This document shows, piece after piece, positions 4,726-52,422 of a stretch of DNA of 64,000 nucleotides; position 1 is the first letter of the stretch, and every line of letters begins with the position of its first letter. The DNA comes from a virus (lineage: Duplodnaviria; Caudoviricetes): positions 8,929 through 72,928 of IMG/VR virus record IMGVR_UViG_3300021387_000535; one strand, given 5' to 3'. A program made the translations under genes and the position numbers. The notes under the pieces were generated by a model that saw nothing but the letters and a program-made list of their open reading frames with translations, was not told the DNA's origin and did no database searches.

Positions 4726-4738
4726 AACCTTATCTATC

Positions 4739-15784: not shown

Positions 15785-15971
15785 ACGTTCCCTTTCTTTT
15801 TTGCAAAAATACACACATTTATTCGCGCGTTCATTTCTATTATATGGAAAGGTTGTTTATTTTGATGTAGTTTCAACAACTAATAAAACGCACGTTGTTT
15901 TCGCCTTGTCTTTTTAATCTTAAATTTGCGCAAACATTTGTTTTAAATTCACGTTTTAATAGGAGAGAACT

Positions 15972-22058: not shown

Positions 22059-25000
22059 ATGGCAACAAACCCAACCGTTGTTGTTGGTCACTTGAACGAC
22101 CAAGAGTTAAAGAACAACATTAACGCCCTTGTTCAACATGTGAATGAGGGTATGAACAAGATTGTTCAAAGCACGAATACAGCCGTTGAGAACATAAAGA
22201 ACAAGCTAAAAGAGCTTGGTAACATAAATGTTAATGAACCGTCTTCAAAAAGCGGTTCTAATCGCGTGAGAAAGCAGAAGGAGGAAACCGAAGCGGTTAA
22301 AGAAACAACGAGGGCACGAAAAGAATTAAAGGTTACATTAGACCAAGAAGCAGCGGCTATGCAGAAAGCTTCTGCACCGAAAAGTGCGCGCGATAGCTTC
22401 TACGCCTTTGCTCAGGCATTTAAAGAAAGACGCGATGCGCTTGCACAACAAATTTCCGCGTTGGAAAAAACCGTCAATATGGCTATAGAAAAGAGAACGA
22501 ATAATATAAATAGGCAAATAGACGAAGCGCGTAGAAAGATAATAGGGCTTAAAGACGAGTTAAACAAAGCAAATGCTACAAATAATACCGCATGGGCACA
22601 GCAAGCAACAAGGGGTATTGAACAAGAAACGAACCACATTAAGAATCTTAAAAAAGAGCTTGCAAACGTAAACAACGAGTTTGCAATACAGAGATTACAA
22701 TTAGCGATGATGGCCGCGGAACATCATAAGGTCGCAAACGCAATGAACGAAAGTGTGGCTATTTCCGCAAAAAACACATCAGAAGCAAGAAGGAGAGCTT
22801 CTGCTGAAATGGATGCAACAAACGAAGCAAGGAAGCATACTGATGAAATAAGTCGTCAAGCTGGCGAGTTAAGAAAAGTTGTTGCTGCAGAAACACAAGA
22901 AATACAAGATTTGGAAACTATAACCAAGCTCGCAAAAGAAGCGCGACAATACATGAAAGAAACTGGTCGCACGGCTTTTGATATTCCATATCTTCGTACC
23001 AATAGTGGTCTTACGTTTATTTACGCAGAAAACGACGAACGCGCAAAGGGTCTTACAATAGAACAACAAATTGCGAATCGTCTAAAAGAAAATAGTTCTT
23101 TATACCAAGAAAACGCGGTTTCTGCATCCAAGGTCGTTGACGAAGAGCGTAAAATAACGCAAGAGTTAGACAAAAGAAAGACATACAAAACGCCGACTAC
23201 GGAAATCAACGAATCTTTCAAAAGGCTCACCGCAAAAGCTATTGGTATAGACCCATCTAATATGGTTAGTGGCGCAAGCACTGAAATTTCCAAAATGACA
23301 GCTTATGTGCGCCAACTTGAAACGGCATACACAAATCTTACCGAACGCGAAAGAAGAACACCATTTGGTCTTCAGCTTAGACAAGAAATACAAGCCACTT
23401 CGCGCACAATAAAAGGATTGCGTGCAGAGATGTCTCGCCCAATCAACTTAAAGGATGCTCTTGCTGGCTCGGAAAAAACATTGGACGATATTGCCTACAA
23501 AATACAACGTCTAAATGACTACAAGCGCGGTTTGAATATCACCGACCCAAAGCAAGTTGCGGAAATGCAACAAGTGGATAATGAGATAAATAGGTTGAAT
23601 AAAGACTTGCAAAAGTACATGAGTAACACTAAGCAAGCCACACAATTGAACAACGCGCTATCCCGTTCGTGGAACTACATGAAAAACCGTCTTGCTTTCT
23701 ACTTTACCGTTGGTGCAAGCACACAATTCGTGAAGAACCTTATCGACATTCGTTCGCAATACGAAATGAACGAACGTGCGTTGGGCATTCTTATCAATAG
23801 CGCGGAGCGTGGTACGCAGATATTTAACCAACTTTCGCAGATGGCGCTTGTATCGCCGTACACACTTATTGAATTGTCTGCCGCAGCAAAGCAACTTGTG
23901 GCATACGATGTTGCCGCCCGTGATGTTGTGGATACTACACGTCGTTTGGCAGACATGGCAAGCGCCGTTGGCGTTCCAATGGAGCGTCTTACATACGCAC
24001 TCGGTCAAATCAAAGCTTATGGTTATCTTAACTCGCGTGATAACCGTATGTTTGCTAATGCTGGCATTCCACTTGTCAAACAACTCGCCGATTATTATAC
24101 CGAGTTTGAAGGTAAGCTTGTTAGCACCGCCGATGTGTACGATAGAATTAAGAAAAAAGCCGTAAGCTATGGCGATGTGATGCAAGTCATTAACAAAATG
24201 ACGGACGAAGGTGGAAAGTTCTTCGATTTCCAAGCGAAGATGGCAGATACGCTTAAAGTTCGCCTTGCTAACCTTACGCTTGCATGGAACAACATGCTTA
24301 ATGACATAGGTAAGGAAACGCAAGGGGTTTTAACTTTCGGCATCGGTGCACTAAAACAATTATTCTTAAATTGGAAAGCCTTTGATAAGGCCATAAAAGA
24401 CGCAGCGATTGCTGGAGTAATAGTTGTTGCGTTTAGAGCTTTGAATGTAATGCTTGTAAAATCGGGGTTACAGTGGCGTATTCTTAGCAAGGAAATGACA
24501 ACCGCTGGAATTGCAGGCGCTGGCGTCGCAAACAAAATGAATTTACTTGGCCGCTCGCTTGCGGGGCTTGCTAAAAATTCACTTACATGGTGGTCGTTGC
24601 TTGTTTTTTGGCTTGTTGAAGTTTTTCATGGTATATCCGACGCAAATGCAGCACAACGCGAATTCAATAAATCCATGCGTGACGGTGCAAAAGACAACTA
24701 CGACAACATTACTAAGTACCTTGACCAATATAAAAAGATACGCAATAGCTTATACAAAAACGAAGAATATTCCTTTGTAGACCCAGGCGGAATAGAGCGA
24801 ACGCGCGTAAGGACTGTCGAGCAAGATATAGATAAAGGCGAAGCGTCAAAGGTTTGGGAATCAATGCGCGAGCAAATAGAGCTTACAACAACGGCAAGTA
24901 ATGCTTATGTAGGCCAACTATTGCGCATAGATAACATTTCCGAAAGATTAAGGCGTGGATTTGCCATACTTGATAATATACAGGAAGTTAACGCTGCTCT

Positions 25001-28000
25001 AAAAGATGTTGACGAAGATACAATAGAAGTAAATGGCGATTTGTCGTCTTGGTGGAATCTTTGGATGTTACCAGACGGTTTAATTGACAACCTTAAGGAC
25101 TATAGAAAACAAATAAAGTTGGTTACTGATTCGTGGGGGAGTGTTCAAGAAGCAAGCAAAAATGCAAGCGTAGCAGCCGCAGACGACTTAGCCAACCTTT
25201 CTACGCAAGCAAGGAGGTTTCAATCCGACTTGAAAGATACAACAGATTCCATAATTGAGTTTATAAATTTAAAAGGGTGGGGTAATGATGAAAATAAAAT
25301 TAATGAGGCTTTTGAACAAATAACAAATAAAATAGTAACCGAAAACCAACTAAGCCCGCAAGAAGCATTCGAACTTCAACTTGGAGTGGAAAACGCACGT
25401 TCTCAAGCCGCAAAACAAGCGTTAGAAGCACGAATAGAAGACGAGAAAGCCGCACTAAAGGTAGCGTATAGCGATGAGGTTGCCGAAGCGTTGAAAGCCG
25501 ACCAAACAAGGCTTGCCAATTGGGCTAAGTTCAACGGTGAAAGCCGCGTGTATTGGGATAACTTCACGAAGTACATCAAGGAACGCCACATAAGCGAATT
25601 GCAAGCCGCCTATAACAAGATGACCGAGAACGGTACGGTTGCAATGAACTACCAATCGCAAGAATGGTTCGAATTCGTCCGTAGTTGGGCTAACAAGTAT
25701 GAAAAAGAAAACGGTTACGCCCAAGATAGCGTTTTCAATAGGTTGCGTAATTGGATTAACGACGCGAATAATTGGAAGGTGTTTATCAAGCTTACGATTA
25801 GCACCGAGGACGGCAAGTCAGTTTATGATGTACTAACGGAGGCCGACACCGCCGCGAATGATGCTTATAAGAAGATTGAACGCCTTAAAAGACGTAGAGG
25901 TGAATTAGAGAAAATGGGTGGTGCTGCTTCATCAGACCTTAAGGTTGCAACGGAATATCGTAATACGGTCAAGGAGATAGCTACCGCCGAACAACATTAC
26001 AACGACGCACTTGCGAAAGGTGGCCACTCGCAAAAAGAAGATACCGAGAACAAGAAAGCGGGAGCAAGGGCAGCACGCGAGGCGGCAAAAGCACAACGCG
26101 AGGCCGAATCGGAATTGCAACGCGCACTTAAAGACGAATTGTCCTTGATTGACAAGGTGCGTAGCCAATACAAGAAGCTAACCGATGCGGGCGTGTCAAA
26201 TACCACCGCCTTAACGATGGTTACAACGCAGTTCAATAACTCAATAGAACATATTAACAAGGTTCTTGGAAAGAACGGTTTGCCGTTGTTTAACATCAAA
26301 ACGTTTGCTGGTACGGACAATCCGCGCGAAATCCTTAACATGCTTAAGGCTCAACTCGAAGCGGCAAAGCTCGCAAAGAATATCAAGCCAGCGGAAATCA
26401 AAGACCTTGAAATCAAGTATGGCGAAATCGTTATAGACGCGAAAGCTTACGATACTAAAAAAATCGCCGATGGGCTTAACAATGAACTTGGCAAGATTAA
26501 GGACGAATACGAACTTGCCGTGGAATTGGATGCAAACCCAGAATTGGGCGGTTTGTTTGAGGACATGCTCGGCATAGACATGAGGGATTTGCCACAAACA
26601 TTCGGCGAGGCTTTTGATAAGGCTAACGACATAGCAAAAAAGAAGCTTTCCGAACTAAAGGTCGATGTTCGCGACTTTGACTTGATGCGTACCGTTATAA
26701 CGCCCGATGAAAACAACATGTGGGAGGGGCTTACGTTCGATAGCGAATTTGTTAAGAACCTTACAAAATGGCAAAAGACATTCCGCGATATGTTCCAAAA
26801 GAACATTGCAGATACGGAAAAGATGCTTGACGACTTTGTTAAAAAGTACGGCGACTATTCGGATAAGATGGCGGAAATCGAGGCCAATAGGCTTAACGAA
26901 ATTAAGCGATTGAATGAAGCGTATTACACGGAGGAAATGCGCACACGCCCCGAATACCTCGCAAAGCTCAACGCGATAGAGGCAAAGGCGAATAAGGAGC
27001 GTGGGCGTGTAAAGCTTGACGAGTTCAAGAATTCAAGTCTTTACGTCGCAATGTTTGAAAACCTACAATATGCCGCCACCGAAACGCTTGTTGCTATCCG
27101 CGAAAAGCTTGATACGCTTAAGAAGGAAATGGGCGAGTTAGACCCCCAACAACTCAAATCGATACAACAACAGTTTGAGAAGATAAACACGGAACTTTTG
27201 CGGCGTAATCCGTACAAAGGGCTTATAAAGAACGCGAAGAACTACATTAAAACGTTGGGCAAGAGTAGAAAGATTGCGCAACAAGACTTTAAGATTGCAC
27301 AAGACAAATACGACGCGCAACTTGAAATCGTTACAAAGAAGAAAGAGGAACTTGAGCAAATAAAGGCGCAAGAACCCTTTAACAAATTTGCCATAGCAAT
27401 AGTTGCCGCTCAAGTTGGCAAGGAGGACGAAAAACTCCAAAAGCTAAAAAAAGAGCTTGAGCTTGCCAACGAACTCAACGACCAGTACAACTTGATGACC
27501 AAAATCTTCAAGGAACAAGCAAACGCAATAGCAACCGATGTTCAGAAAATAGCGAACAACCTACAAGCCCTTGGTGAGTTCCGTGATACACTTAACGGTT
27601 TGTTCGGTATTGACGCATCGAAAGGAGAAACGTTGCTTGGACACAACATCGATGGTATTGTTGATGGCTTGACGAAAGTCGGCGACGGGCTTAACCAAGT
27701 CGTTTCATCCGCGCAAAGCCACAACGCGGTTGGTGTTGCTACTGGCGTTATCAATACCGTTGCTGGTATCGGTGATTCTATCGCAAGCGTGTTTGGTGAT
27801 GGTTCGGCACGCACGCGGCGCTTGAACCGCGAGATTTACAAAAGCAAAGATGCGGTGCGTGAACTTAACCTCGCGTACAAAGACCTTGAGCGTGCCGTTG
27901 AGCGTGCCACGGGTACTGAAGAGACTTCCGCACGGCGAATGGAAATCGCGAACAAGGAGGCCGAGATGGCCGAGATACAACGCCAGATGGAACTTGAACG

Positions 28001-28763
28001 TAGAAAGCGCTCGAAAGACCGCGATAACGACGCGATAAAAGAGTACGAGGAAACGATTCAAGATTTGCGTAATGAGATAGCGGATTTGAAAGACGACCTT
28101 GTGAACAACCTACTTGGTAGCGACGTGAAATCCGCCGCCGAAGACTTTGTTGACACTTGGGTTGATGCTTGGCGTGCGGGCGAGACCACGCTTGATGCCA
28201 TAACAACGAAGATGGATGAAATGATTTACAATCTCATCAAGAAGGCGGCAACATCAAAGATTGTAAGCGTGTTGTTAGACCCGTTGTACAAAGCCGTTGA
28301 TAGGTTCACGCAAACAAGTTCGGAGGGTGGCTACGACTTAACGACGAACGAGTTGAGTTCCATCGCACAGTTGGCTGGTGAACTTGGCATTAAGATTAAC
28401 GATGCACTTGGTGCTTTCTACGGTAATCTTGCCAACCTTAATATTATCAACAAGAACATTGAAAACGGCGACGACGAGTTGTCGGCACTACAAGCTGGCA
28501 TACAAGGTATCACCGAAGACACCGCTGGCGCTTTGGAAGCCTACATGAATAGTGTATCACAACAAGTGTACCTACAAAGTGACTTGCTAACACAAATCCG
28601 TGATGCGGTCGTGATGTTCAATACGGATGTGCAGGTCGCTACGATAAGTCAGATATTGCTTCAACTACAAAGTAGCTATCAAGTGCAAATGTCGATACAA
28701 GGTATTCTTGAAGGATGGTCAAATGCAAGTGGCCAAGCAATGCGTGTTGAACTAATGAACTAA
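22059..28763 (+). CDS. Tape measure protein
   Basis: 2234 aa, helical and Ala-rich; tape-measure motifs (ALVSPYTLIEL, AAVGVPMERL, YALGQIKA). Confidence 0.92.
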   Translation: MATNPTVVVGHLNDQELKNNINALVQHVNEGMNKIVQSTNTAVENIKNKLKELGNINVNEPSSKSGSNRVRKQKEETEAVKETTRARKELKVTLDQEAAAMQKASAPKSARDSFYAFAQAFKERRDALAQQISALEKTVNMAIEKRTNNINRQIDEARRKIIGLKDELNKANATNNTAWAQQATRGIEQETNHIKNLKKELANVNNEFAIQRLQLAMMAAEHHKVANAMNESVAISAKNTSEARRRASAEMDATNEARKHTDEISRQAGELRKVVAAETQEIQDLETITKLAKEARQYMKETGRTAFDIPYLRTNSGLTFIYAENDERAKGLTIEQQIANRLKENSSLYQENAVSASKVVDEERKITQELDKRKTYKTPTTEINESFKRLTAKAIGIDPSNMVSGASTEISKMTAYVRQLETAYTNLTERERRTPFGLQLRQEIQATSRTIKGLRAEMSRPINLKDALAGSEKTLDDIAYKIQRLNDYKRGLNITDPKQVAEMQQVDNEINRLNKDLQKYMSNTKQATQLNNALSRSWNYMKNRLAFYFTVGASTQFVKNLIDIRSQYEMNERALGILINSAERGTQIFNQLSQMALVSPYTLIELSAAAKQLVAYDVAARDVVDTTRRLADMASAVGVPMERLTYALGQIKAYGYLNSRDNRMFANAGIPLVKQLADYYTEFEGKLVSTADVYDRIKKKAVSYGDVMQVINKMTDEGGKFFDFQAKMADTLKVRLANLTLAWNNMLNDIGKETQGVLTFGIGALKQLFLNWKAFDKAIKDAAIAGVIVVAFRALNVMLVKSGLQWRILSKEMTTAGIAGAGVANKMNLLGRSLAGLAKNSLTWWSLLVFWLVEVFHGISDANAAQREFNKSMRDGAKDNYDNITKYLDQYKKIRNSLYKNEEYSFVDPGGIERTRVRTVEQDIDKGEASKVWESMREQIELTTTASNAYVGQLLRIDNISERLRRGFAILDNIQEVNAALKDVDEDTIEVNGDLSSWWNLWMLPDGLIDNLKDYRKQIKLVTDSWGSVQEASKNASVAAADDLANLSTQARRFQSDLKDTTDSIIEFINLKGWGNDENKINEAFEQITNKIVTENQLSPQEAFELQLGVENARSQAAKQALEARIEDEKAALKVAYSDEVAEALKADQTRLANWAKFNGESRVYWDNFTKYIKERHISELQAAYNKMTENGTVAMNYQSQEWFEFVRSWANKYEKENGYAQDSVFNRLRNWINDANNWKVFIKLTISTEDGKSVYDVLTEADTAANDAYKKIERLKRRRGELEKMGGAASSDLKVATEYRNTVKEIATAEQHYNDALAKGGHSQKEDTENKKAGARAAREAAKAQREAESELQRALKDELSLIDKVRSQYKKLTDAGVSNTTALTMVTTQFNNSIEHINKVLGKNGLPLFNIKTFAGTDNPREILNMLKAQLEAAKLAKNIKPAEIKDLEIKYGEIVIDAKAYDTKKIADGLNNELGKIKDEYELAVELDANPELGGLFEDMLGIDMRDLPQTFGEAFDKANDIAKKKLSELKVDVRDFDLMRTVITPDENNMWEGLTFDSEFVKNLTKWQKTFRDMFQKNIADTEKMLDDFVKKYGDYSDKMAEIEANRLNEIKRLNEAYYTEEMRTRPEYLAKLNAIEAKANKERGRVKLDEFKNSSLYVAMFENLQYAATETLVAIREKLDTLKKEMGELDPQQLKSIQQQFEKINTELLRRNPYKGLIKNAKNYIKTLGKSRKIAQQDFKIAQDKYDAQLEIVTKKKEELEQIKAQEPFNKFAIAIVAAQVGKEDEKLQKLKKELELANELNDQYNLMTKIFKEQANAIATDVQKIANNLQALGEFRDTLNGLFGIDASKGETLLGHNIDGIVDGLTKVGDGLNQVVSSAQSHNAVGVATGVINTVAGIGDSIASVFGDGSARTRRLNREIYKSKDAVRELNLAYKDLERAVERATGTEETSARRMEIANKEAEMAEIQRQMELERRKRSKDRDNDAIKEYEETIQDLRNEIADLKDDLVNNLLGSDVKSAAEDFVDTWVDAWRAGETTLDAITTKMDEMIYNLIKKAATSKIVSVLLDPLYKAVDRFTQTSSEGGYDLTTNELSSIAQLAGELGIKINDALGAFYGNLANLNIINKNIENGDDELSALQAGIQGITEDTAGALEAYMNSVSQQVYLQSDLLTQIRDAVVMFNTDVQVATISQILLQLQSSYQVQMSIQGILEGWSNASGQAMRVELMN

Positions 28764-37847: not shown

Positions 37848-38200
37848 TAGAACGGCAAACCGTCGTTAGAAGCTTGAGGACTCACCACCTGCGGTTGTGG
37901 CTTCGACGGCGGAGCTACCTCTTGATTTACTCCGCCAACCAACGACACACGATAGGCCACGACATCGTTGAACCACTTGCCATTCCACTCACGCGCACTT
38001 ATGTCAAAAAACACTTGCACATCCTTTCCCGTCATAATACCCATCTGCGACCATTTCTCTTCACCGAAGACTACAAACGCACACTTCTTCGGGTACTCAC
38101 CTCGCGTCTCTATCACAAAGCCGTTTTTGACAATCTCACCATTCTTGCCGTTGAAACGTTGCGTCTCCAAGACGGCAATAACTTTTCCTGTAATATCCAT
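37847..38200 (-). CDS. DUF3127 family SSB-like protein
   Basis: GEYPKKCAFVVFG, FDISAREWNGKWF, tail ending DGLPF. Confidence 0.8.
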   Translation of the reverse strand: MDITGKVIAVLETQRFNGKNGEIVKNGFVIETRGEYPKKCAFVVFGEEKWSQMGIMTGKDVQVFFDISAREWNGKWFNDVVAYRVSLVGGVNQEVAPPSKPQPQVVSPQASNDGLPF

Positions 38201-38284
38201 AAAACTATATTTTAAAATAAACTTAATTGTTGCTTTTCTAACATGATTCTTTTGTTTGCCTTTTCATAATATCCTTTGCTCAAT

Positions 38285-38506
38285 TCAAAGCCGCCGCATC
38301 CGCTTGTCGAAGATGCGCGTAAAAAACAGGTAGCGGATGCGACGCGGCGACGTGTAGTCCGCCCAGTGGAAGACGGGCAGCCGCCTCGCCTTCAGCACCG
38401 GCCGCCGCAGCGTGTCGAGGTGGTGCCGCCACCAGACGGTGGCCGTCTCTCGGTCGCGCTCCAGTTCGGCATACACCTCCGCGTGGGTCATGGTTTGTGT
38501 GAGCAT
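38285..38506 (-). pseudogene. Probably truncated hypothetical gene at the edge of the GC-rich block
   Basis: GC-rich ORF stops abruptly where composition turns AT-rich. Confidence 0.4.
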
Positions 38507-38513
38507 GATTCTA

Positions 38514-38548
38514 AGTTAAGAGTTAAGAGTGAAGAGTGAAGAATTTGC
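38514..38548. repeat. Heptamer tandem repeat AAGAGT(T/G) followed by AAGAATTTGCTACCGC
   Basis: aagagtt-aagagtg-aagagtg-aagaatttgctaccgc. Confidence 0.7.
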
Positions 38549-39204
38549 TACCGCACCAGCTCGAAGGTGTAGGCGAATACCCACGGGTTGCTGTTCCATG
38601 TACCACGCTTGCATACTTTATCAATGAGCGACTGAAAAGCGAGCCGTGGAGTCTTGAACGTGATATGGTTTGGAACGTCACCCCACTCGTCGAAGTAATA
38701 CTTATCCCATGTATTCATGAACTCGCCCTCATGTATGCCCTCACGCATGATGTCGGCCTCGCTGATGCTTTGCAAGCGTTCAGCCTTGATGCTCTTAATG
38801 CGGATACGGTTCGGGCAGTAGTAGGCACTCACAAACATCTTGTTTTCCCAACCGCCTGAATCCATGAGTTCTCCGATATACTGACCATTCGCCTCCAGTT
38901 GAGAGTCAAGCCATTCTCGGTTCTGCTGAGCTGTCACCTTGTAGGGCTGTGCGATGGCTATTTCTTCCCCCACCCTGTAGGCAGGCTGATTATCCTTTGG
39001 CACCAGGTAGCCGTTGCGCCCTATCTGGAACAGAGCCGTGCCGTCGCTCGCTATAAACATATCGTCGGGCTCTATGGCTTCCATTGTGCCGTTCTCTAAC
39101 TTGCGGTGCAATGTCAGCGTACAAATGCGCCGCGTCATGTCCTTTGTCCCATCGAGCACTGACTGCTGGAGTCCGAAGTGCTCGTTAAACATTATCTTCT
39201 TCAT
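38548..39204 (-). CDS. ASCH/PUA-like phage protein
   Basis: VLDGTKDMTRR, YRVGEEIAI, IRIKSIKAERLQSISEADI, WNSNPWVF. Confidence 0.65.
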   Translation of the reverse strand: MKKIMFNEHFGLQQSVLDGTKDMTRRICTLTLHRKLENGTMEAIEPDDMFIASDGTALFQIGRNGYLVPKDNQPAYRVGEEIAIAQPYKVTAQQNREWLDSQLEANGQYIGELMDSGGWENKMFVSAYYCPNRIRIKSIKAERLQSISEADIMREGIHEGEFMNTWDKYYFDEWGDVPNHITFKTPRLAFQSLIDKVCKRGTWNSNPWVFAYTFELVR

Positions 39205-39206
39205 GG

Positions 39207-39545
39207 CTATTCAAGCTTGATAAATTCCTCGAACTCCTTTTGCTCTATCTCGTCGAGTCTTTTTGCAAGTTTCTCGCCTACGCGGATAGCCTGCTCGATG
39301 ACTCTATCTTCGGCTTCCTCATCATTTACAAAATAATGAGCGAAATGCCCATTGATGACAGAGTTCGCCACATAGAAACGACGGTCAATCATTGCCGCCT
39401 TTCGCCCCATATCGTAGGCAAGCACGGCTTCATTTACGGCATTCATCATCGAAACGACTTCCATTCCGCACTCCATCTTGGCGGCAGGTATAGCCATTTT
39501 CTTGATGCGAGCCACAATCATGTTAGTGTCACTTGTCAGTTTCAT
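39207..39545 (-). CDS. Hypothetical protein
   Basis: 112-aa ORF in the operon. Confidence 0.55.
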   Translation of the reverse strand: MKLTSDTNMIVARIKKMAIPAAKMECGMEVVSMMNAVNEAVLAYDMGRKAAMIDRRFYVANSVINGHFAHYFVNDEEAEDRVIEQAIRVGEKLAKRLDEIEQKEFEEFIKLE

Positions 39546-39640
39546 AGTTCCTTGAAATTCGTGTAAATCCGTGATAATTCGTGTTCAAAAAAGTGAAATC
39601 GGCGGCAAAAACCGTTGCCTGTCGCCGATTCCGTCAGGGT

Positions 39641-40123
39641 TCACTCAGCCGTGTCGGTGTCCGGCTCCTCGATGTCGATTTTGAGGTTCGCCTCCTTCGC
39701 CTCGATGCGGAGCCGCTGTGTCAGCACGTCCAGATAGTCGTGCATCGCCTGGTGCTGACGGAAGAGCAGCGTGCGGCTGGTCTCCGACAACAGCTGGCAC
39801 TTGTCCGACGCCAAGAAGTCCGACATCCGCTCGTACCTGCCGCGCAACTCGTCCTCACCGTGTCCGAGGGTGATGGTGCCCTTGCCGTCCTTGACGGTCA
39901 GCGTGGCGGGCACGCCCTTGGTCAGCTGCTCCAGCAAACCGATGACCGCCTTGCCAGTCCTGTCCGCCATGCGTCCCAACTGCCCCACACGATAGAGCGC
40001 GTAGGCCATCAGCGCACCGAAGCTCGCCATCAGCACGTCGCCCATGCAAAAGTTAATCACTGCGACCGTGTACATCGCCACGGCCAGAACCGAAAGAAGA
40101 ATAATCACTGTCTTGTTCTTCAT
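39641..40123 (-). CDS. Membrane-anchored hypothetical protein with C-terminal helical hairpin
   Basis: Two N-terminal TM segments; LLFRQHQAMHDYLDVLTQR helix. Confidence 0.55.
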   Translation of the reverse strand: MKNKTVIILLSVLAVAMYTVAVINFCMGDVLMASFGALMAYALYRVGQLGRMADRTGKAVIGLLEQLTKGVPATLTVKDGKGTITLGHGEDELRGRYERMSDFLASDKCQLLSETSRTLLFRQHQAMHDYLDVLTQRLRIEAKEANLKIDIEEPDTDTAE

Positions 40124-40154
40124 CTTGCTTGTTGTTTTTTTAATTGTTGAAAAA

Positions 40155-40943
40155 TTAGAATAATGTGAGTTGTCTTTGTTCCCAGTCGATGCGCTTGCAA
40201 GCCATATCGTAGTAGTCTTTGCTCAATTCAAAGCCGACGAAATGCCGCTTTTCCTTGATGCAAGCGATGGCCGTCGTGCCGCTGCCCATACAGTTGTCGA
40301 GCACCGTGTCGCCCTCGTTGGTGTAGGTGAGAACGAGATAGCGCAACAGGTCAACGGGCTTTTGGGTGGGGTGAAACTGCTTGTTTACATCGTGCTCTTT
40401 TTCGATGTCGATAATTGACAATGGGAACTTCTCAGTCGTAATGACATCGGAACGTGCCCACGGGTCGAACTTGCCATAGCATCCGTTCTTCAACTTGCCG
40501 CCACCATGACCGCGTGTGTGGTTCGGGAATCCCGTTCGCATTTGCGGATTGTATGTCGGCAGCTTGTCGTAGAAGATTACGATGTCTTCATGGTTGCGCA
40601 ATGGCATTCGGTTGGCATTGAGGAAACCGCTTGCCCTATCGCCTTTCTTCCATATCAGATTGTATCGCCACATCTTCCGATTGCTGTGCATGAGATCAGC
40701 CGTGAACATTCCCTGAGCGAACAGCACGATTGCTGCAGTAGGCTTGCATACTCTGCGATATTCAGCCCATAGCGGTTCAAACGGGATTATCGTGTCCCAT
40801 GAGCCGCCCTCGCTTTCGCCATTCAGCACCCCATACGGCAAATCGCAAATCACCGCGTCAATCGTTCCGTCGGGAATGGCTTTCATCCCCTCCAGGCAGT
40901 CCATGTTGTATATCGTATCAAGCTCTATCATAAAACTAATCAC
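40155..40943 (-). CDS. DNA amino-methyltransferase (beta class)
   Basis: CDLPY, HPTQKP, VLDNCMGSGTT. Confidence 0.9.
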   Translation of the reverse strand: MISFMIELDTIYNMDCLEGMKAIPDGTIDAVICDLPYGVLNGESEGGSWDTIIPFEPLWAEYRRVCKPTAAIVLFAQGMFTADLMHSNRKMWRYNLIWKKGDRASGFLNANRMPLRNHEDIVIFYDKLPTYNPQMRTGFPNHTRGHGGGKLKNGCYGKFDPWARSDVITTEKFPLSIIDIEKEHDVNKQFHPTQKPVDLLRYLVLTYTNEGDTVLDNCMGSGTTAIACIKEKRHFVGFELSKDYYDMACKRIDWEQRQLTLF

Positions 40944-41247
40944 TACTATCTACACTATAAGATAAACCTAACTCGGAACAATAATAATGATGGTCGGTTC
41001 GACGATAACCCGTATCCCAACCCTTGTCAAACCTAAAACCTTGACAACCAAAAGCGTGCACGACTGCCTTCTCCATGTCACCATACATCCAACCACTACA
41101 ACCGTCGGTATTCCAATACCAACCGTTCGCGTAACCTAAATCACCAATAGGCGACAAACGACGTAAATCACTAAGGCCAAACAAACCAATCTTACGCACT
41201 AAATCACGCTTCCATGAAGGAACACGACTAAAATCCTTGTACTTCAT
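40936..41247 (-). CDS. Hypothetical protein
   Basis: 103-aa ORF overlapping the MTase start. Confidence 0.5.
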   Translation of the reverse strand: MKYKDFSRVPSWKRDLVRKIGLFGLSDLRRLSPIGDLGYANGWYWNTDGCSGWMYGDMEKAVVHAFGCQGFRFDKGWDTGYRRTDHHYYCSELGLSYSVDSSD

Positions 41248-44538: not shown

Positions 44539-45120
44539 ATGACAAAGAAGAATGAAAACAACAGCAAGAGAGTAAACGAATTCGCAGTAATTAACAATTT
44601 GCGCACAAAGTGTGCACCTGTCCACAAAAGTGCAGGCACATTCAACCAGGCGCTGAAAGCACTTCAGGGTCTGGAGAAGCAATACGAAGAGGTATGTGAG
44701 GCGCTCCATGTGGATAGCTTCAAATTTAAGTCTATCTGCGCAGGCTGGTCAGACGAGCTCCGTCTGAATGTAGACGGGAGGGACGTTATGGGTCTGTATG
44801 TGGACGAGGCTGCAAAGATCACCGTCACGACCGAGAAGGGCGAACAGAAGGAGGTGAACATATACGAGCGCACTGTCAATAAGAAGGGCGAGGTCAAATT
44901 CCGCGCAGTGAAGAGGCGCGTGCTGGCTACTCCCGATATGTGGGATGACGGGCTCATTCTCGAAGGTCTCATTCAGTCAGCCATGTTAGGTCTTGCAAAG
45001 AAGGAGGCAGAGGTAGCAGAAAAGCATTATAACGACCTGCTGGCCTCTGGCGAGGTGTACATTAAGAAGACCGAGCACGCCGCAGACGGCAGTAGCAGCA
45101 TCACCTTCGAGCAGGTATAA
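44539..45120 (+). CDS. Hypothetical early protein
   Basis: ATG 44539 after a ttaacttaaaac initiation region. Confidence 0.65.
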   Translation: MTKKNENNSKRVNEFAVINNLRTKCAPVHKSAGTFNQALKALQGLEKQYEEVCEALHVDSFKFKSICAGWSDELRLNVDGRDVMGLYVDEAAKITVTTEKGEQKEVNIYERTVNKKGEVKFRAVKRRVLATPDMWDDGLILEGLIQSAMLGLAKKEAEVAEKHYNDLLASGEVYIKKTEHAADGSSSITFEQV

Positions 45121-45266
45121 TTATAGCCATGTGGAAAATGTGCACGACCGAGCGTGCAGTGAAAAGCAATAAATAGGCGTCAGGCTCGGTGCGTTATTAC
45201 GGGTGCAGTGTGTGCGCGCTGCATCCGTTTTAGGTCGCAAAATTATTAACTAAAAGCATAAAGAAA

Positions 45267-45455
45267 ATGAAAGCATTTTTGTTTAAGGTTACACTTGTCA
45301 GCGGGCTGGCAGTGTTACAGAGTGGGATCGGTTATAATGTTAACGAGGCTCTTATGGACGCCTGTGATGTGATGGCTCAGTGTGGCGAATTGAATGAGGA
45401 CGAAGTCCAGAGTGTCGAATTAGTAAATACGGAGGAGGAGCGTCATCATGCGTAA
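45267..45455 (+). CDS. Hypothetical acidic protein
   Basis: 62 aa with typical initiation region. Confidence 0.55.
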   Translation: MKAFLFKVTLVSGLAVLQSGIGYNVNEALMDACDVMAQCGELNEDEVQSVELVNTEEERHHA

Positions 45456-45660
45456 CTGGTTTGCAATAATAGTGCTGAGCGTTATCGGCTTCTTCATGTG
45501 TGTGTTGTGTTTGGCGCTCGCAGCCATGTTCGCGCGAGCAGGTCAACAGTGGTGCGCAGGCGGATGCTTTTTAGCTCTTGTGTGCGTGATGTTTAGCACG
45601 GCCACAGTAGTGATGGACGTCTATTTCTATAACGAAAACGTGGATTTTTTCTTAAAGTAA
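45448..45660 (+). CDS. Small membrane protein (2 TM)
   Basis: Two hydrophobic helices. Confidence 0.55.
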   Translation: MRNWFAIIVLSVIGFFMCVLCLALAAMFARAGQQWCAGGCFLALVCVMFSTATVVMDVYFYNENVDFFLK

Positions 45661-45701
45661 GCAAACAATAATTATTAACTAAAAACAAAGGAGATTTTAT
45701 T

Positions 45702-47126
45702 ATGAAGTTCAGAAACATTAGTACGGGTGAAGTATTCAACGTGTCAAACCTTAAGATGCGCGACGGTCGTATCTTCTTCCAGGTGCGCGGCAAAGGCTGT
45801 GGCACGAAGTTTTTCAACAGGAATGTGTGCCTCGTGCTCGACGAGCATGTAAGTGACGGTACGTACCTCAAGGTCGCTGACGGCTGGGAGCTGGCCGAGG
45901 AGCGCAAGGAGCGCAAGCCGCGTGCACCGAAAGCACCGCGATCACCGAAAGCAGAGTCGAAGGAGCAGGAGTCCGCGTTCACACTCAACACGCCGCCCAC
46001 CGAGCCGTCCGTTGAAGCGGTCGAAGTGAAGTCCATCCCAGCAGAAGAAGCCGAGGCGATCGCAAGCGAGCTCAACGCTGGCGTTGACGCGGAGGCTTTG
46101 CGCGCAGAGCTATCAGCAAAGTATGGCACGATGGGCGAGGACATCTTTGTGTATGCAAGTCGTTTGGCTGAGATTATTCGTCCCGAGGCGAAGGTGAGTG
46201 AAGAGGGCTTAAAGAAGGCTGCCGAGGAGGCCGCAGAGCGCGTTGTGGAAGTCAAAATGACCGAGTGGTCTGAGCGTGGCCGTTCGTTCGGCACGAAGAC
46301 TATCGAGGTCGTGTCTCCGCAGGGTCGGCACAAAGTGTCGGGTGCAACGGCAGAAAATTTCGACATATATTGTAACTTAGTTCAGGCGGGCAAGCCGTTG
46401 TACATGTACGGCCCAGCGGGTTCGGGTAAGTCGTACACAGCGAAGCAGATTGCCGAGGCGCTCGGTCTTGACTATTATGAGACCTCGCAGGCGATGTTCG
46501 CCCACGAGTTGAAGGGCTATGGTGACGCAGCGGGAAAGTTTGTAGAAACGGCATTCTATAGGGCTTTTGCCAACGGTGGCGTGTTCTTCTTGGATGAGGT
46601 GGATGCAAGCGCGCCAGAGGCGTTGGTTGTATTAAACAATGCAATTGCCAACAAGCGTTTCGACTTCCCCGTTATCGGCAACATCGAGGCACACGAGAAT
46701 TTCCGAGTGATTGCAGCGGGCAACACCCGTATGACGGGTGCAACGTTGGAGTACACCGCGCGTCAGATGCAGGACACATCGTTCAAGAACCGCTTTTTCT
46801 TTGAGGTGGTGACCTATAGCCGTGACGTCATGATGGAGATTGCGGGCGGTGACGAGGAGATTGTCAACTTTGGCGCAGACCTCCGCAGGGCAGCACGCGA
46901 AACGGGTATTTCCCAGCTATTCTCATATAGGCAGTGTGCCGACCTTGCAACGTTGCAGGCCGCGTGCAATAACGATGACGCACACTTGCTGCGTGGTAGC
47001 GTGTTGCAGGAGAAGGAGGTCGACGATGCGCTCAACCTTTACGAACACCTTGAAAACAAGCGTAACCGCTGGGCAAAGGCGATGAAGAAGTGCATCGAGC
47101 ATATGAAGACCGAGGAGGTGTGGTAA
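45702..47126 (+). CDS. MoxR/CbbQ-like AAA+ ATPase with extended N-terminus
   Basis: GPAGSGKS, FFLDEVD, FRVIAAGNT, SFKNRF. Confidence 0.88.
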   Translation: MKFRNISTGEVFNVSNLKMRDGRIFFQVRGKGCGTKFFNRNVCLVLDEHVSDGTYLKVADGWELAEERKERKPRAPKAPRSPKAESKEQESAFTLNTPPTEPSVEAVEVKSIPAEEAEAIASELNAGVDAEALRAELSAKYGTMGEDIFVYASRLAEIIRPEAKVSEEGLKKAAEEAAERVVEVKMTEWSERGRSFGTKTIEVVSPQGRHKVSGATAENFDIYCNLVQAGKPLYMYGPAGSGKSYTAKQIAEALGLDYYETSQAMFAHELKGYGDAAGKFVETAFYRAFANGGVFFLDEVDASAPEALVVLNNAIANKRFDFPVIGNIEAHENFRVIAAGNTRMTGATLEYTARQMQDTSFKNRFFFEVVTYSRDVMMEIAGGDEEIVNFGADLRRAARETGISQLFSYRQCADLATLQAACNNDDAHLLRGSVLQEKEVDDALNLYEHLENKRNRWAKAMKKCIEHMKTEEVW

Positions 47127-47174
47127 AAACCACACTTCCTTAAATACTAACGTAACGAAAGAAAGGGAAATACA

Positions 47175-47951
47175 ATGTTTAAGAAGTACGAAAGCATTGA
47201 TGCTATGGTGCGCGACCTCAACCGAATAAGCGGTGGGTACGAGAGCAACTCCACGTCCAACCCAGAATGGTACGGGTCGGCGAGTTATGACGAAGCCGTT
47301 GACCGCATAAAGCGTGGTGACGATGAACTTGCAAAAAAGCTCAAAGGTAGTGAAAAGCTCGACATACACATTCCGTCAGCGGGTGTAAAGAAAAAGATTG
47401 TCACGCGGGTTGCAGGGTTCGCGCCACATGTTCCTAACTACTTGGCTGGCGTTCCGAATAACATGCTATGGTGTGTCGAGAAAAAGATTAACAAGAAAGT
47501 GTTAACCGTCATCTATGGTTGCAATACGTGGGCATACGAGTCTGCTACCGAGATTGCTCATGTGAGCGCAAGGGTTGTGTCGTGCATCATGTCGTTGGAG
47601 CGCAAAGGCTATCGGGTGCAGTTGTACGCAAGCAACTGCGCCACAAGCGGAAGAAAGGAAACAGGGTTCATAACAAAGCTAAAGGACGCAGGGCAACACA
47701 TTGACGTGTTAAAGATGGCGTTCCCATTATTGAGTGCATCGTGGAATCGTAGGTTTGGTTTCCGTTATCGTGAAATGTGCGGATGGCACTCGGTGGGTTC
47801 AAGCATGGATGGGTACGATCTTAGGGAGTATCTGAGGAGAAACAACGTAACGTATGACGTTGCGTTGAGCTTCTATGATGCAAAGAACATCAAGACGGTC
47901 GAGGAGCTTGAAAAACTCTTCATCGATAAGTCGAGTAAAATAACAAAGTAA
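47175..47951 (+). CDS. vWA-like partner of the AAA+ ATPase
   Basis: GFAPHVPNYLAGVPNNM, LERKGYRVQLY, KLKDAGQHIDVLKMAF; directly follows the ATPase. Confidence 0.6.
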   Translation: MFKKYESIDAMVRDLNRISGGYESNSTSNPEWYGSASYDEAVDRIKRGDDELAKKLKGSEKLDIHIPSAGVKKKIVTRVAGFAPHVPNYLAGVPNNMLWCVEKKINKKVLTVIYGCNTWAYESATEIAHVSARVVSCIMSLERKGYRVQLYASNCATSGRKETGFITKLKDAGQHIDVLKMAFPLLSASWNRRFGFRYREMCGWHSVGSSMDGYDLREYLRRNNVTYDVALSFYDAKNIKTVEELEKLFIDKSSKITK

Positions 47952-47978
47952 ACAAAACATTTAAAAACATTAAAAGCA

Positions 47979-48416
47979 ATGAAAACAATGAATGCAAAAG
48001 ATTTGGAGTATTTGAAGGAGATAACGGGTCTTGTTAGTGAAGGTGAGACCCAAGTGACTAACAACACTATGGCGGTTGCTACACCAGACGACGAAAACCT
48101 CAAGGTGTGGGTAGGTAAATTTGTCGATGTGACGGACAAGACGGGCACACACACAGGCATGATTGACCGCGTACATGGAACTCGGTTGGGGTTCGTGTTC
48201 GCCACCAAGGATGGATGGACGGCGAGGTTGGTATGGCCAGCAAACGTGCGCGTTGCATCGGACGAGAAAAGGGCAAAGCGTAGTGCCGAGACTTACTACA
48301 ACGAGGAGAGCACAAGCCTCCGTTGCCGCATCCGTCGCAACATCGTTGGTGACGACAAGGTTATGTTGAACAGGATGCTTGCGAACTGCGAGTCTTGGCT
48401 TCGTAAGCTCGTGTAA
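47979..48416 (+). CDS. Hypothetical protein
   Basis: 145-aa ORF. Confidence 0.6.
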   Translation: MKTMNAKDLEYLKEITGLVSEGETQVTNNTMAVATPDDENLKVWVGKFVDVTDKTGTHTGMIDRVHGTRLGFVFATKDGWTARLVWPANVRVASDEKRAKRSAETYYNEESTSLRCRIRRNIVGDDKVMLNRMLANCESWLRKLV

Positions 48417-48448
48417 AAAGTTGTTCACAATCAACGGGCGGTTCACTT

Positions 48449-48500
48449 GTGGCGTGGCGACAACGCGTGTTGTCGGGCGGTTCGACTCCGCCGCCGCTAC
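48449..48500 (+). ncRNA. Minimal tRNA-like structure (T-arm, one hairpin, closing stem)
   Basis: GGCGG-TTCGACT-CCGCC; GACAAC-GCGT-GTTGTC; GTGGC..GGC/GCC-GCTAC. Confidence 0.45.
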
Positions 48501-48530
48501 GAATTTTATTAACTTAAAACACAGTGAGAT

Positions 48531-49693
48531 ATGAGTAAGATTAGTGAAAAGCGTATGATGTACGCCAAGGTTCTCACCGAGAATGGTGTTGACCTTACAA
48601 AGAGTTACTACGCACAGCCAGACAGTCAGTTGCGCGTCGTCTTCAAGTCGTGTGAAATATTCAAGTTCAAAAGCACAAACCCGTGTCGCACGAATGCCGA
48701 GCAGTTCTATTATGCGGCGCAGGCAGGTTTCAAACTATTAAACAAGTAAGATTATGACAGTATTATCGAGCAAGAACTTTTCGTTCTATGAGATAGACGA
48801 AGAGCTTAAAGAAAACTTCAAGGCTGTGTTATGGGATGAGCTTTCTTCGTATCATGCCGAATGCTTGAAGTGGGTTGGCAATGCTATTCGCCCCGTTGAC
48901 TCCCAATGGTTCTGGTCGGGTGGCGCGTATTGTTGGTATGATAAAACACAAACGCACGAATATCGCGTTTGGCAGACCGTTAACGGAAACCTCATGTATG
49001 AGGATTGCACTAATGATAAATTATATGTGGTTCATTTTAATTGATAGGAGAAAAGGATTATGACATGTAAAGAATATTGGAACAACATAGTATGTGAGTT
49101 GAATAAGAAAAGCCTTCCGATTCGTAGTTTTGGTTTCGGCGAGTTCTACACAGAGGTTCAGTACGTTACACTTGACGCGCTTAGACGAGAGGATTGGCCG
49201 AATGGGATTGCGGAAAACAGTGTGTACGTTACGTTCGGAATAGACATGGCAATGATGACGGTTGAATGCGCATCTTGCGGCCATATTTGGTTGACGAATG
49301 AAGACAAAAGAAAGTCCAACCTCGCCATGTGTAGCATCAAGAAAGCGCACAAGGCTATCGGAAAGACTTGGATGAGGAAGTCTAAGTTTAAGAATACCGA
49401 GGACTTGGCTAAGAAAATCGACAAGTTCTGGTCATCAGTTCTTGAAACTCTCAATGAAGTTACGGGTGGTTATCCATACAAGGAAATGAAAATAAATATT
49501 TATTGATATGATAAGTTTTGAAGTTCATGTTATCGGCTTTAATGTCGATACATTTATAACGAGATACGCTTGGTATATCAAATCATGGACGCGTAGCTGG
49601 TATGATGGTAGAATATTTAATCTAATTGCACCGCAAGAGGTTTACAACGAGATTGACTCCTTAACCGAAGAGTGTATTGAAATCCTTAAATAA
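48531..49693 (+). CDS. Four small hypothetical genes (48531-48749, 48754-49044, 49060-49506, 49508-49693)
   Basis: Tightly packed co-directional ORFs with AT-rich initiation regions. Confidence 0.6.
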
Positions 49694-49721
49694 AAAATGA
49701 CAAATGGCAAAGTTTAATTTT

Positions 49722-50335
49722 GGAAACTATATACCTGTTGACTTAAGAGTTTTATAAACTTTGTGATATTTATTATTATAATAACGAAACAAACATATAT
49801 AAAGAAATATGAAGAGAATAACAAGATTAACAGAAAGTGACCTTCGTAGAATCGTGAAAGAGTCTGTAAAGAAGGTATTAAAAGAAGGAGTTTTTGATAG
49901 TAAACGTATACAAGTGGAACTTGATAATTCTTTAGGTGGTGGGGCGATGGTTGCCGATTTTTATTCAAGTGACGATATGGTAACAATTATCACACGTGGT
50001 AATGGGGTTAATTTACACGAACTTGATACTGTTATGAATGAATTAGGGTATGAGAAATTTCGAATGATTCCAAAGGCTTGCGATGAACACCTTTTCATCC
50101 ATAAAGATAGTTTAGGGAAGTATTATGATGACGAAACCACAAATAGGCTAAAAATGGAACACGGTTTTGATGTTTAAGCAACCTTACACAGCCTTAATTA
50201 ACTCCAAGTAACAATCACTCCAATGGACTTGTTGAACATATCCTCAAAGCGTTCCAATCGGGACGCTTTTCTTGTGTTCCAACAATACATGCTTTTATTG
50301 ACATCTTCACTTCAGTCAACAGGTATATAATTCCC
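49722..50335. mobile_element. Non-autonomous transposon / mobile insertion cassette with IS1595 (ISNwi group)-like ends
   Basis: TIR-L GGAAACTATATACCTGTTGACTTAAG versus reverse complement of TIR-R GGGAATTATATACCTGTTGACTGAAG (23/26 identical). Exact 8-bp direct repeat TTAATTTT at 49714-49721 and 50336-50343. No transposase. Confidence 0.85.
49809..50177 (+). CDS. Passenger protein with LTESDL N-terminal leader
   Basis: MKRITRLTESDLRRIVKESVKKVLKEG...; the only credible ORF inside the cassette. Confidence 0.75.
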   Translation: MKRITRLTESDLRRIVKESVKKVLKEGVFDSKRIQVELDNSLGGGAMVADFYSSDDMVTIITRGNGVNLHELDTVMNELGYEKFRMIPKACDEHLFIHKDSLGKYYDDETTNRLKMEHGFDV

Positions 50336-50606
50336 TTAATTTTTCAATCACGGCGCACGTTAATAATGGCGCTATGGTTATTTATTCAAAAGACTATGTC
50401 TTCAATGTAACGCAGTTAGTTCGGTTTTGACATTAGCCGAATTTTGCATGCCGTTTAGACATTGGTCTATTGATGATGGCGATGATGTTGTAGGTTGCAC
50501 TTATTGTCAATATGTGTCTTATGATGACAACAAAGAGGACTACCTACTTGCATCGTGGTACGAGGTCGACGAAGATGATTGTATAATACTTTAACACTAC
50601 AATGAT

Positions 50607-51630: not shown

Positions 51631-52422
51631 ATGAAACAATATGTAACCTATCTTCGCGTCTCGACTCAGCGTCAAGGCGCACAAGGACTTGGTATCTCTG
51701 CACAGAGGAATATGTGCGAGAACTTTATCAAACAAAACAAAGGAAAGCAAGTCCAAGAATTTATGGATGTAGAAAGTGGTACGCATCGTGACAGAAAGGG
51801 TCTATGGCAAGCGATTGACTACTGCAAGAAGAATGGTTGCAGCTTAGTAATTGCGAAGTTGGACAGAATGAGCAGGGATGTGGAGTTTACTTTCAAGGTA
51901 ATTAACACAGGCATAGACATTCACTTTACGGATATGCCCGTTGTCAATTCAATGATACTAGGTGTATTTGCCGCCGTTGCTCAATACGAGCGGGAAATGG
52001 TATCAGATAGAACAAAGAAGGCTCTCGCGGTCAAGAAGGCGCAAGGTTGCAAGATGGGTGCTGCAAACGAAATATACCGTCTTAATTACAAGAACAAAAC
52101 CGAAGAAGAAAAGGCGAAAGTTCAGGCGGCAAAGGGGACATCAAAGAGGAATGGCCATCACGCTTCTAAAGACGTGCAAGGTTTCATTAAGGTTGTGCGT
52201 AAGGAGTTCAAGCAACTTAAATCGGACAACCCGAGCGAATGGAATTGGTCTATCGTTAATTGCAAAAGACCGCATCTTAACAACATGCTTGAAAGAATGC
52301 AAGAGTATCAGATGTTTGATTCATCTTTGTTTGAGAGATGGGACTTCAATGCGCCGAACGTTGAGCAGAAATTTAGGAGTTACATGCAGGCGTTCAAGAA
52401 GTCTTATTATAGTGTGTGTTAA
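51631..52422 (+). CDS. Serine recombinase (resolvase/invertase family)
   Basis: YLRVST catalytic Ser motif, DVESG, IAKLDRMSR, YEREMVSDRTK. Confidence 0.9.
   Translation: MKQYVTYLRVSTQRQGAQGLGISAQRNMCENFIKQNKGKQVQEFMDVESGTHRDRKGLWQAIDYCKKNGCSLVIAKLDRMSRDVEFTFKVINTGIDIHFTDMPVVNSMILGVFAAVAQYEREMVSDRTKKALAVKKAQGCKMGAANEIYRLNYKNKTEEEKAKVQAAKGTSKRNGHHASKDVQGFIKVVRKEFKQLKSDNPSEWNWSIVNCKRPHLNNMLERMQEYQMFDSSLFERWDFNAPNVEQKFRSYMQAFKKSYYSVC

Follow-up and report, generated by a model that had tools for sequence, protein, structure and literature searches.

The gene for a 122-aa protein in a siphovirus-like phage was found to lie within a small element that its sequence identifies as a transposase-less mobile insertion cassette (in other terms, a MITE with cargo) of an IS1595-family transposon, and the origin of this cassette from a jumbo phage is well supported by sequence comparison. 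The overall explanation that we favour, with reasonable but not high confidence, is that a cargo unit of a jumbo phage, headed by a leader peptide resembling the capsid targeting sequence (CTS) of phage T4, travelled on the cassette into the smaller phage, where it would now be a near-neutral hitchhiker without its partners. The window referred to below is the whole 64-kb stretch of DNA that was analysed, and positions are those of the window unless a contig is named.

Results

The Gene and Its Home Phage

The window forms part of a virus record of 72,928 bp, which is classed as linear in IMG/VR and for which CheckV estimates a completeness of 92%. The siphovirus-like home phage (G000) encodes a large terminase (14009–15814), a 2234-aa tape measure protein (22059–28763), a primase-helicase and a methyltransferase. 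The 122-aa protein is the product of the plus-strand ORF 49809–50177, with the N-terminus MKRITRLTESDLRRIVKESVKKVLKE quoted in the first-pass annotation of this DNA. A leader search of the entire 72,928-bp record returned this ORF as the single copy, in agreement with the earlier statement that no other protein here carries the leader. Promoter, gene and terminator all fall within a 614-bp element at 49722–50335 (Table 1).

Table 1. Positions of the cassette features and of the duplicated target site in the window
Feature	Position	Strand	Remarks
Left 8-bp target-site duplication	49714–49721		TTAATTTT; identical octamer directly outside both ends
Left terminal inverted repeat	49722–49747	+	GGAAACTATATACCTGTTGAC...; pair I1, 84% complementary; identity with contig L081 starts exactly here
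Promoter-like motif, GATATTTAT(n4)AAA type	49765–49784	+	GATATTTATTATTATAATAA; resembles the jumbo-phage late type
Leader	49809–49886	+	Residues 1–26, MKRITRLTESDLRRIVKESVKKVLKE; LTE, VKE and LKE are possible cleavage sites
Body	49887–50177	+	Residues 27–122 and stop codon; predicted small alpha/beta domain
Intrinsic-terminator-like hairpin and T tail	about 50246–50279	+	Part of the cargo
Right terminal inverted repeat	50310–50335	-	Identity with contig L081 ends about here
Right 8-bp target-site duplication	50336–50343		TTAATTTT; same octamer as left

A resolvase-type serine recombinase (PF00239; DNA invertase according to its phrog) is encoded at 51631–52422, 1.3 kb 3′ of the cassette. It was considered as the mobilising enzyme and rejected, because the inverted ends and the 8-bp duplication suggest a DDE transposase instead. 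The G+C content of the window is 0.49–0.55 at 38000–41000 and 45000–49000, compared with 0.30–0.40 in the adjoining stretches, and this mosaic suggests further foreign segments. An AAA ATPase (45702–47126) and a DUF7192 protein (47175–47951) fall in the high-G+C block at 45000–49000.

A Cassette Derived From an IS1595-Family Transposon

The inverted ends of the element are 26 nt long, and the insertion site is an intergenic TTAATTTT. The family end, GG(G/A)AACTATATACCTGTTGAC, also bounds elements on contigs L088, L144, L156 and L160, and perfect, AT-rich duplications of 8 bp flank nine elements, namely that of the window and those on L081, L087, L088, L092, L144, L156, L160 and L178. A 307-aa ORF on L088 encodes a transposase with PF12762 (DDE_Tnp_IS1595, E 5e-45) and PF12760, and family members of 2.3–3.1 kb encode a transposase of this PF12762 and PF12760 kind together with passengers, the passenger being a leader gene in two cases. 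The whole 72.9-kb record of the home phage contains no PF12762 transposase and only this one pair of element ends, and the 122-aa gene is the sole ORF of more than 60 aa on the cargo strand of the element.

The element end recurs in another 16 stretches of IMG/VR and in 53 from bacterial MAGs, which by their record titles are mostly Prevotella, Prevotellaceae, Bacteroidales and Paludibacteraceae from rumen or gut; some of these MAG-filed contigs are probably jumbo-phage sequences binned as bacteria. Element ends are held by L134 (ONBK01000001.1, a 408,014-bp scaffold of a "Bacteroidales" MAG) and by L156, from a Prevotellaceae MAG. The leader-bearing IS on L156 was considered as a bacterial chromosomal copy and rejected, as its neighbours match phage families, and L156 is probably a phage contig binned as bacterial.

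Individual members of the family differ in their arrangement. At L088:2822–5154, on a 235-kb phage contig, an autonomous IS1595-type element with the duplication AATTAAAA carries its transposase at 4132–5055 together with two passengers, a 137-aa ORF and a leader gene, and its insertion point is the loop of a terminator-like hairpin. A TnpB/OrfB_IS605 gene (374 aa) lies between two same-family ends at L098:11438–12885, where a target duplication is missing, and this arrangement may be a nested insertion or a recombinant of two elements.

Conservation and Spread of the Leader Peptide

The protein search with the 122-aa protein retrieved nine full-length relatives and many proteins that match residues 1–27 only and are wholly divergent thereafter. 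The leader has the 26-residue consensus MKKxIRLTESDLHRIVKESVxRILKE, with nearly invariant residues. An alignment-based scan of IMG/VR gave 142 confirmed places, from which 78 loci were kept; these contain 95 leader ORFs, of which 81 are distinct and 80 are additional to that of the window, so that the recurrence of the LTESDL...VKESV leader in other phage genes, which had been noted earlier, holds on a broad scale. The ORFs in these 78 loci range from 65 to 318 aa and are frequently arranged in tandem. None of the papers searched contains the leader string.

Codon use at the fixed leader residues varies, Leu being written with 5–6 codons and Ser with both TCN and AGY. Fixed residues with free synonymous codons indicate selection on the peptide and not on the DNA or RNA, and a DNA- or RNA-level cause of the conservation was rejected on these grounds. 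Against the homologue on the 360-kb contig L080, which is one pair only, dN/dS was 0.16 for the leader and 0.67 for the body. Residues 9–25 are predicted by AF2 to form a helix, at low confidence, and this modelled helix would be amphipathic with a net positive charge. Glu occupies the last leader position in 74 of the 81 sequences, with L or I two residues earlier ([ILV]-x-E). The similarity among leader proteins stops at this conserved Glu, and two more such sites, LTE and VKE, lie inside the leader, [ILV]-x-E being a short pattern that is easily met in a charged helix.

A 143-aa ORF at L081:5388–5863 ends in a leader-like stretch (...SVLRRIVEKSVRKVLKE...) and adjoins a further right end of the element family, an arrangement that suggests leader-mediated recombination or stacked insertions at a hot spot. 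In the jumbo genome G003 (loci L103–L120; e.g., at 67811, 117465, 155080–156774 and 189756), other recurrent N-termini stand behind ATATTTAT, among them MLDxYYDSYGY..., MNxLNSYGY... and weaker leader variants such as MRIIINESQLD..., each heading several genes. The leader may be one of several tag families in this genome.

The Leader as a Hallmark of Jumbo Phages

A leader profile was run over 40 IMG/VR records, and CheckV completeness was used to read their sizes. The six records of at least 96% completeness, 295–412 kb long, contain 8–32 leader copies apiece, compared with one copy in the 73-kb home phage. Leader-bearing records of 50–240 kb are 15–80% complete according to CheckV and thus represent fragments of larger, jumbo-size genomes. 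The leader is absent from two complete mid-size phages that had been chosen for carrying the transposon end. Among the bacteria, 10 of the 301 species genomes of the sampled family gave a leader match (E <= 1e-5). The search by profile and genome size that the first-pass annotation had proposed therefore places the leader in jumbo genomes; a leader common in small phages or bacteria, which would have spoken against its view, was not found in this sample, the smaller contigs being incomplete and bacterial matches few.

Upstream Motif and Promoter Class

The motif ATATTTAT begins 43 nt 5′ of the ATG of ORF 49809–50177, and TAnnTTTG does not occur within 80 nt 5′ of this ORF. This Bacteroidota-type sequence stands within 80 nt 5′ of 9 of the 93 called genes of the window, typically at operon heads (terminase, head modules), and the upstream region of the cassette gene is thus as distinct as had been described. 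Exact GATATTTAT occurs once in the 64-kb window; with one mismatch allowed there are 39 occurrences versus 30 ± 6 by chance, which is no enrichment, and the special feature of the window is the exact motif at this position and not a genome-wide excess.

Exact ATATTTAT was present within 70 nt 5′ of 40 of the 80 leader genes elsewhere, mostly at -25 to -45, which agrees with the earlier remark that both motif and leader recur in jumbo-phage genes, and TAnnTTTG preceded none of the 80. A G stands just before ATATTTAT in 33 of 42 aligned sites, and AAA follows 12–14 nt downstream. The T4-type late box TATAAATA was found 5′ of three of the 80 leader genes, and the window has GATATTTAT instead. A single T4 gp55 query, run with no positive control, gave no match to a gp55-type late sigma in G000, G001, G003, G005 and G007.

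G003 is a complete jumbo genome of 348,671 bp with terminal repeats, in which 453 genes were called. Although intergenic DNA makes up 9% of this genome, 63 of its 96 ATATTTAT sites are intergenic, and the motif precedes 53 genes, including those of the portal, major head protein and head maturation protease. TAnnTTTG, in turn, stands before other genes in G003, the largest of which encode an RNA ligase, a DNA helicase, two exonucleases, a clamp-loader-like ATPase and an SSB. Because ATATTTAT stands before head genes and TAnnTTTG before replication genes, ATATTTAT looks like a late promoter of the jumbo clade; the split is what early/middle and late promoter classes would give. The late-promoter role suggested in the first-pass annotation thus gains support by association with head genes in a complete jumbo genome.

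A Second Copy and the Direction of Transfer

Two ENA contigs of 131.5 and 127.5 kb (L081 and L082) encode the same protein with one substitution, V36A, the gene differing by one base. Their neighbouring genes, which include one for a 1129-aa sheath-like protein, are quite different from those of the window, and the similarity is confined to 49722–50339. This 618-nt block is 90.6% identical, because of a 43-nt deletion and 24 rewritten nucleotides before the ATG. The L081 copy is flanked by the duplication TAAAATAA, different from TTAATTTT, and it splits a native GATATTTATTATTAAAATAA promoter from a native 101-aa leader gene. The L081 sheath protein is 68–78% identical to proteins of IMG/VR records (89–242 kb, 24–75% complete) that contain several leader genes, and hence the L081 carrier belongs to the jumbo clade. 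A search for the cassette junction recovered only the two phage backgrounds already known, that of the home phage and that of L081/L082. Sequencing runs from a sheep-rumen study contain both phages.

Traces of the cargo were also found beyond the cassette itself. A homologue of 74% identity lies on the 360-kb contig L080 in a tandem array of leader genes, where inverted ends are missing and a CTATTTAT box precedes every leader gene. The terminator region (50223–50283) shares 92% identity with the sequence that follows another leader gene in the jumbo fragment L042, and the promoter stretch of the cassette has an exact 27-nt match to G003. The G+C content of the cassette is 0.338, close to the 0.349 of G003, whereas the flanking 5 kb have 0.483 and 0.396. 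The origin from a jumbo phage, which had been proposed earlier, is accordingly backed by leader and motif of jumbo type, a transposon cassette, a copy in the jumbo clade and a jumbo-like G+C content. From copy number, context and composition, we infer that the transfer ran from the jumbo phage to the small phage.

The Body Domain

The structure prediction envisaged at the outset gave an AF2 pLDDT of about 80–88 across body residues 27–122. Searched alone against 1.84 billion representatives, the body retrieved four clusters, all of its own small family. The 122-aa protein had no match in Pfam and a single weak one in PHROGs (E 0.26). Foldseek against PDB and BFVD returned nothing at E <= 0.001, the top hit of a VIA wide fold search (a 201phi2-1 protein, Z 5.5) was at the noise level for unmatched models, and the ESM Atlas gave no usable match to the body. 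In 50,697 deposited phage genomes, neither leader nor body was matched by tblastn, and the window section 47–53 kb had no blastn match among deposited phage genomes.

Discussion

Considering the above results, we propose a plausible route for the cassette. The donor would be a clade of about 300–410-kb rumen/gut phages with T4-type heads, and the vehicle an IS1595-family transposon that circulates in Bacteroidales, mainly Prevotella-type, genomes and their phages. A gene unit of the jumbo phage would first have come to lie between IS1595-type ends and would then have entered the small phage by transposition, presumably in one cell that held both phage DNAs and the cognate transposase, the cassette being mobilised in trans by a transposase of the host or of the co-infecting jumbo phage. 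The cargo is a complete expression unit with a late-type promoter (GATATTTAT), a leader-tagged small-protein gene and a terminator.

As regards the leader, a role as a virion-targeting signal is plausible by analogy with T4. The internal proteins of T4 are diverse save for a shared capsid targeting sequence, which brings them into the scaffolding core (PMC3012670). The prohead protease gp21 and its giant-phage relatives cleave on the C-terminal side of Glu, as at ITE-6 and LTE-619 of T4 Alt, and several cuts per propeptide are common (PMC5694885). An S77 (T4 gp21-family) prohead protease was present in all seven leader-rich jumbo records tested and absent from the home phage and from the leader-free mid-size phages G039 and G040, and leader genes adjoin protease, portal and head genes in G003, G005 and G007. 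A CTS-like head-loading tag that is removed by the protease is, on these grounds, the most likely function of the leader, and we hold it with moderate confidence. In the donor phages, the leader would bring unrelated cargo proteins into the assembling prohead alongside co-expressed head proteins, and the S77 (gp21-type) prohead protease would remove it after Glu at LTE, VKE or LKE. The leader might instead be a helix for docking or oligomerisation with another partner, such as a chaperone, DNA, or a factor of a membrane or compartment, or it might boost the translation of late genes. An amphipathic helix of net positive charge would suit such a role, as would a length of 26 residues, far above that of the T4 tag, and the number and diversity of the carriers, which reach 32 per genome and range from 65 to more than 300 aa. 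We consider this rather doubtful, since the S77 protease co-occurs with the leader, the leader genes are interleaved with head genes under the same promoter motif, the conserved similarity ends at the Glu of [ILV]-x-E, and free synonymous variation speaks against a role at the RNA level.

The presence of the cassette in the small phage can be explained in several ways, and its assembly has to be considered as well. A chimera built through a repeat common to phages of one metagenome could be suspected, because the short-read contigs L122, L125, L179 and L180 break at element ends; however, both junctions are spanned in at least three independent assemblies (a 32-kb ENA contig, a 2-kb JGI contig and the IMG/VR record), a chimera would not yield a perfect 8-bp duplication flanking the element, and we regard an artefact as exceedingly improbable. 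The ORF is present and intact in all three assemblies that cover the site. An exact-match search of IMG/VR did not find an empty site, and the insertion could therefore be fixed. The cassette is co-directional with a long plus-strand gene array, and no terminator separates it from the 61-aa gene that ends at 49693; lying within such an array, it could be transcribed by read-through or from a host-type promoter, and its own terminator could dampen the genes downstream. Since an S77 protease, further leader genes and further copies of the promoter are all missing from the recipient, tag and promoter are probably without partners there, and any expression would come from read-through of the surrounding plus-strand operon. 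The gene in the recipient would thus be best described as a recent, near-neutral hitchhiker, and the two cassette copies are too similar to reveal selection in the recipient. We rank this reading above a benefit to the recipient, and the latter above a device for co-infection.

A benefit to the recipient would mean that the body protein helps any phage of the host, for instance by anti-defence like IPI* of T4, and that it is made by read-through with its leader irrelevant or tolerated. The co-directional insertion behind a 61-aa gene with no terminator in between and the intact ORF in each assembly agree with this, and T4 internal proteins do inhibit host defence (PMC3012670). Nevertheless, one substitution relative to the jumbo copy leaves no time for selection to show, the dN/dS of the body is 0.67 in the single pair measured, and Pfam, PHROGs, the fold searches and the atlas give no functional hint. 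An internal protein, moreover, acts after injection, which the home phage probably cannot arrange, and such a benefit appears unlikely to us. A further reading is that the gene is silent when the phage is alone and becomes active when a jumbo phage co-infects, through the late transcription machinery of the latter, its product then being loaded into jumbo heads, which it harms or rides. Promoter type and leader both have their counterparts in the jumbo clade and none elsewhere in the home genome, and transposition implies that both phages or their DNAs met in one cell with an IS1595 transposase. Nevertheless, the same cassette occurs in a genome of the jumbo clade, where such a role would be senseless, and a single recent insertion has the look of a neutral hitchhiker, so that we judge it very improbable. 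The same low probability attaches to the broader idea that IS1595-type transposons shuttle units of late promoter, head-loading tag and cargo, with the copy in the small phage acting as a weapon or stowaway upon jumbo co-infection.

The cassette provides a clean record, at the level of sequence, of how a whole gene unit was moved by a transposon between very different types of phage, with the target duplicated at either site, and it offers one concrete way in which the mosaic "moron" content of phage genomes can arise. The same tagged gene occurs with and without its presumed partners (late transcription, S77 protease and T4-type prohead), and this natural experiment allows the function of the leader to be examined by comparison. 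Should the leader prove to be a head-loading tag, its 26 residues would form a portable address by which proteins are packed into large capsids, and its cargo, hundreds of uncharacterised small proteins, would be a likely source of injected factors for host takeover or anti-defence.

Comparison With Known Systems

Like the CTS of T4 (IPI–III, Alt), the leader is a short N-terminal peptide common to unrelated, fast-evolving small proteins, its carrier genes often stand in arrays, and it ends in [ILV]-x-E; the jumbo donors encode an S77 (gp21-family) protease, and the leader genes carry the upstream motif of the head genes. Unlike the CTS, which has about 10 residues, it has 26 and differs in sequence, is found on 8–32 carriers per jumbo genome versus about 4 in T4, and goes with the late promoter GATATTTAT and not with the gp55-read TATAAATA. 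The tagged gene of the window, furthermore, sits in a phage that has no S77 protease.

Mobile insertion cassettes have a passenger gene and no transposase and are kin of MITEs and transporter ISs (PMC3129680). The cassette of the window is built in the same way, and it resembles the transporter ISs and mobile insertion cassettes of the IS1595 family (e.g., MIC231 of Bacillus cereus) in having an 8-bp duplication and in sharing identical ends with elements that encode a PF12762/PF12760 transposase. It differs from them in residing in phage genomes, at two sites in two unrelated phage types, and in carrying a leader-tagged phage late-gene unit and not a bacterial accessory gene. An 8-bp duplication is reportedly usual for the IS1595 family (ISfinder; Siguier et al. 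2009).

The elements MPME1/2 of mycobacteriophages, described by Sampson et al. (2009), are reported to be about 440 bp long, with a small ORF of their own and a 6-bp duplication. They share with the cassette a small size, inverted ends with a target duplication and a scattered occurrence among unrelated phage genomes. We know of no link between MPMEs and a known IS family, nor of a promoter-gene-terminator unit of another phage lineage within them, whereas the cassette of the window has IS1595-family ends, an 8-bp duplication and such a unit. The PeSL cassettes of T4-type phages, described by Arbiol et al. (2010), likewise carry promoters and redistribute small novel ORFs from one phage genome to another. 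They are reported to shuffle via recombination between repeated promoter and stem-loop sequences, but the cassette of the window bears the marks of DDE transposition (inverted ends and an 8-bp duplication). The components are of known kinds, IS1595-derived cassettes on the one hand and, by analogy, CTS-like tags on the other; what appears to be new is the cargo of the cassette and the record of its passage between two phages, one a jumbo phage and the other a siphovirus of 73 kb.
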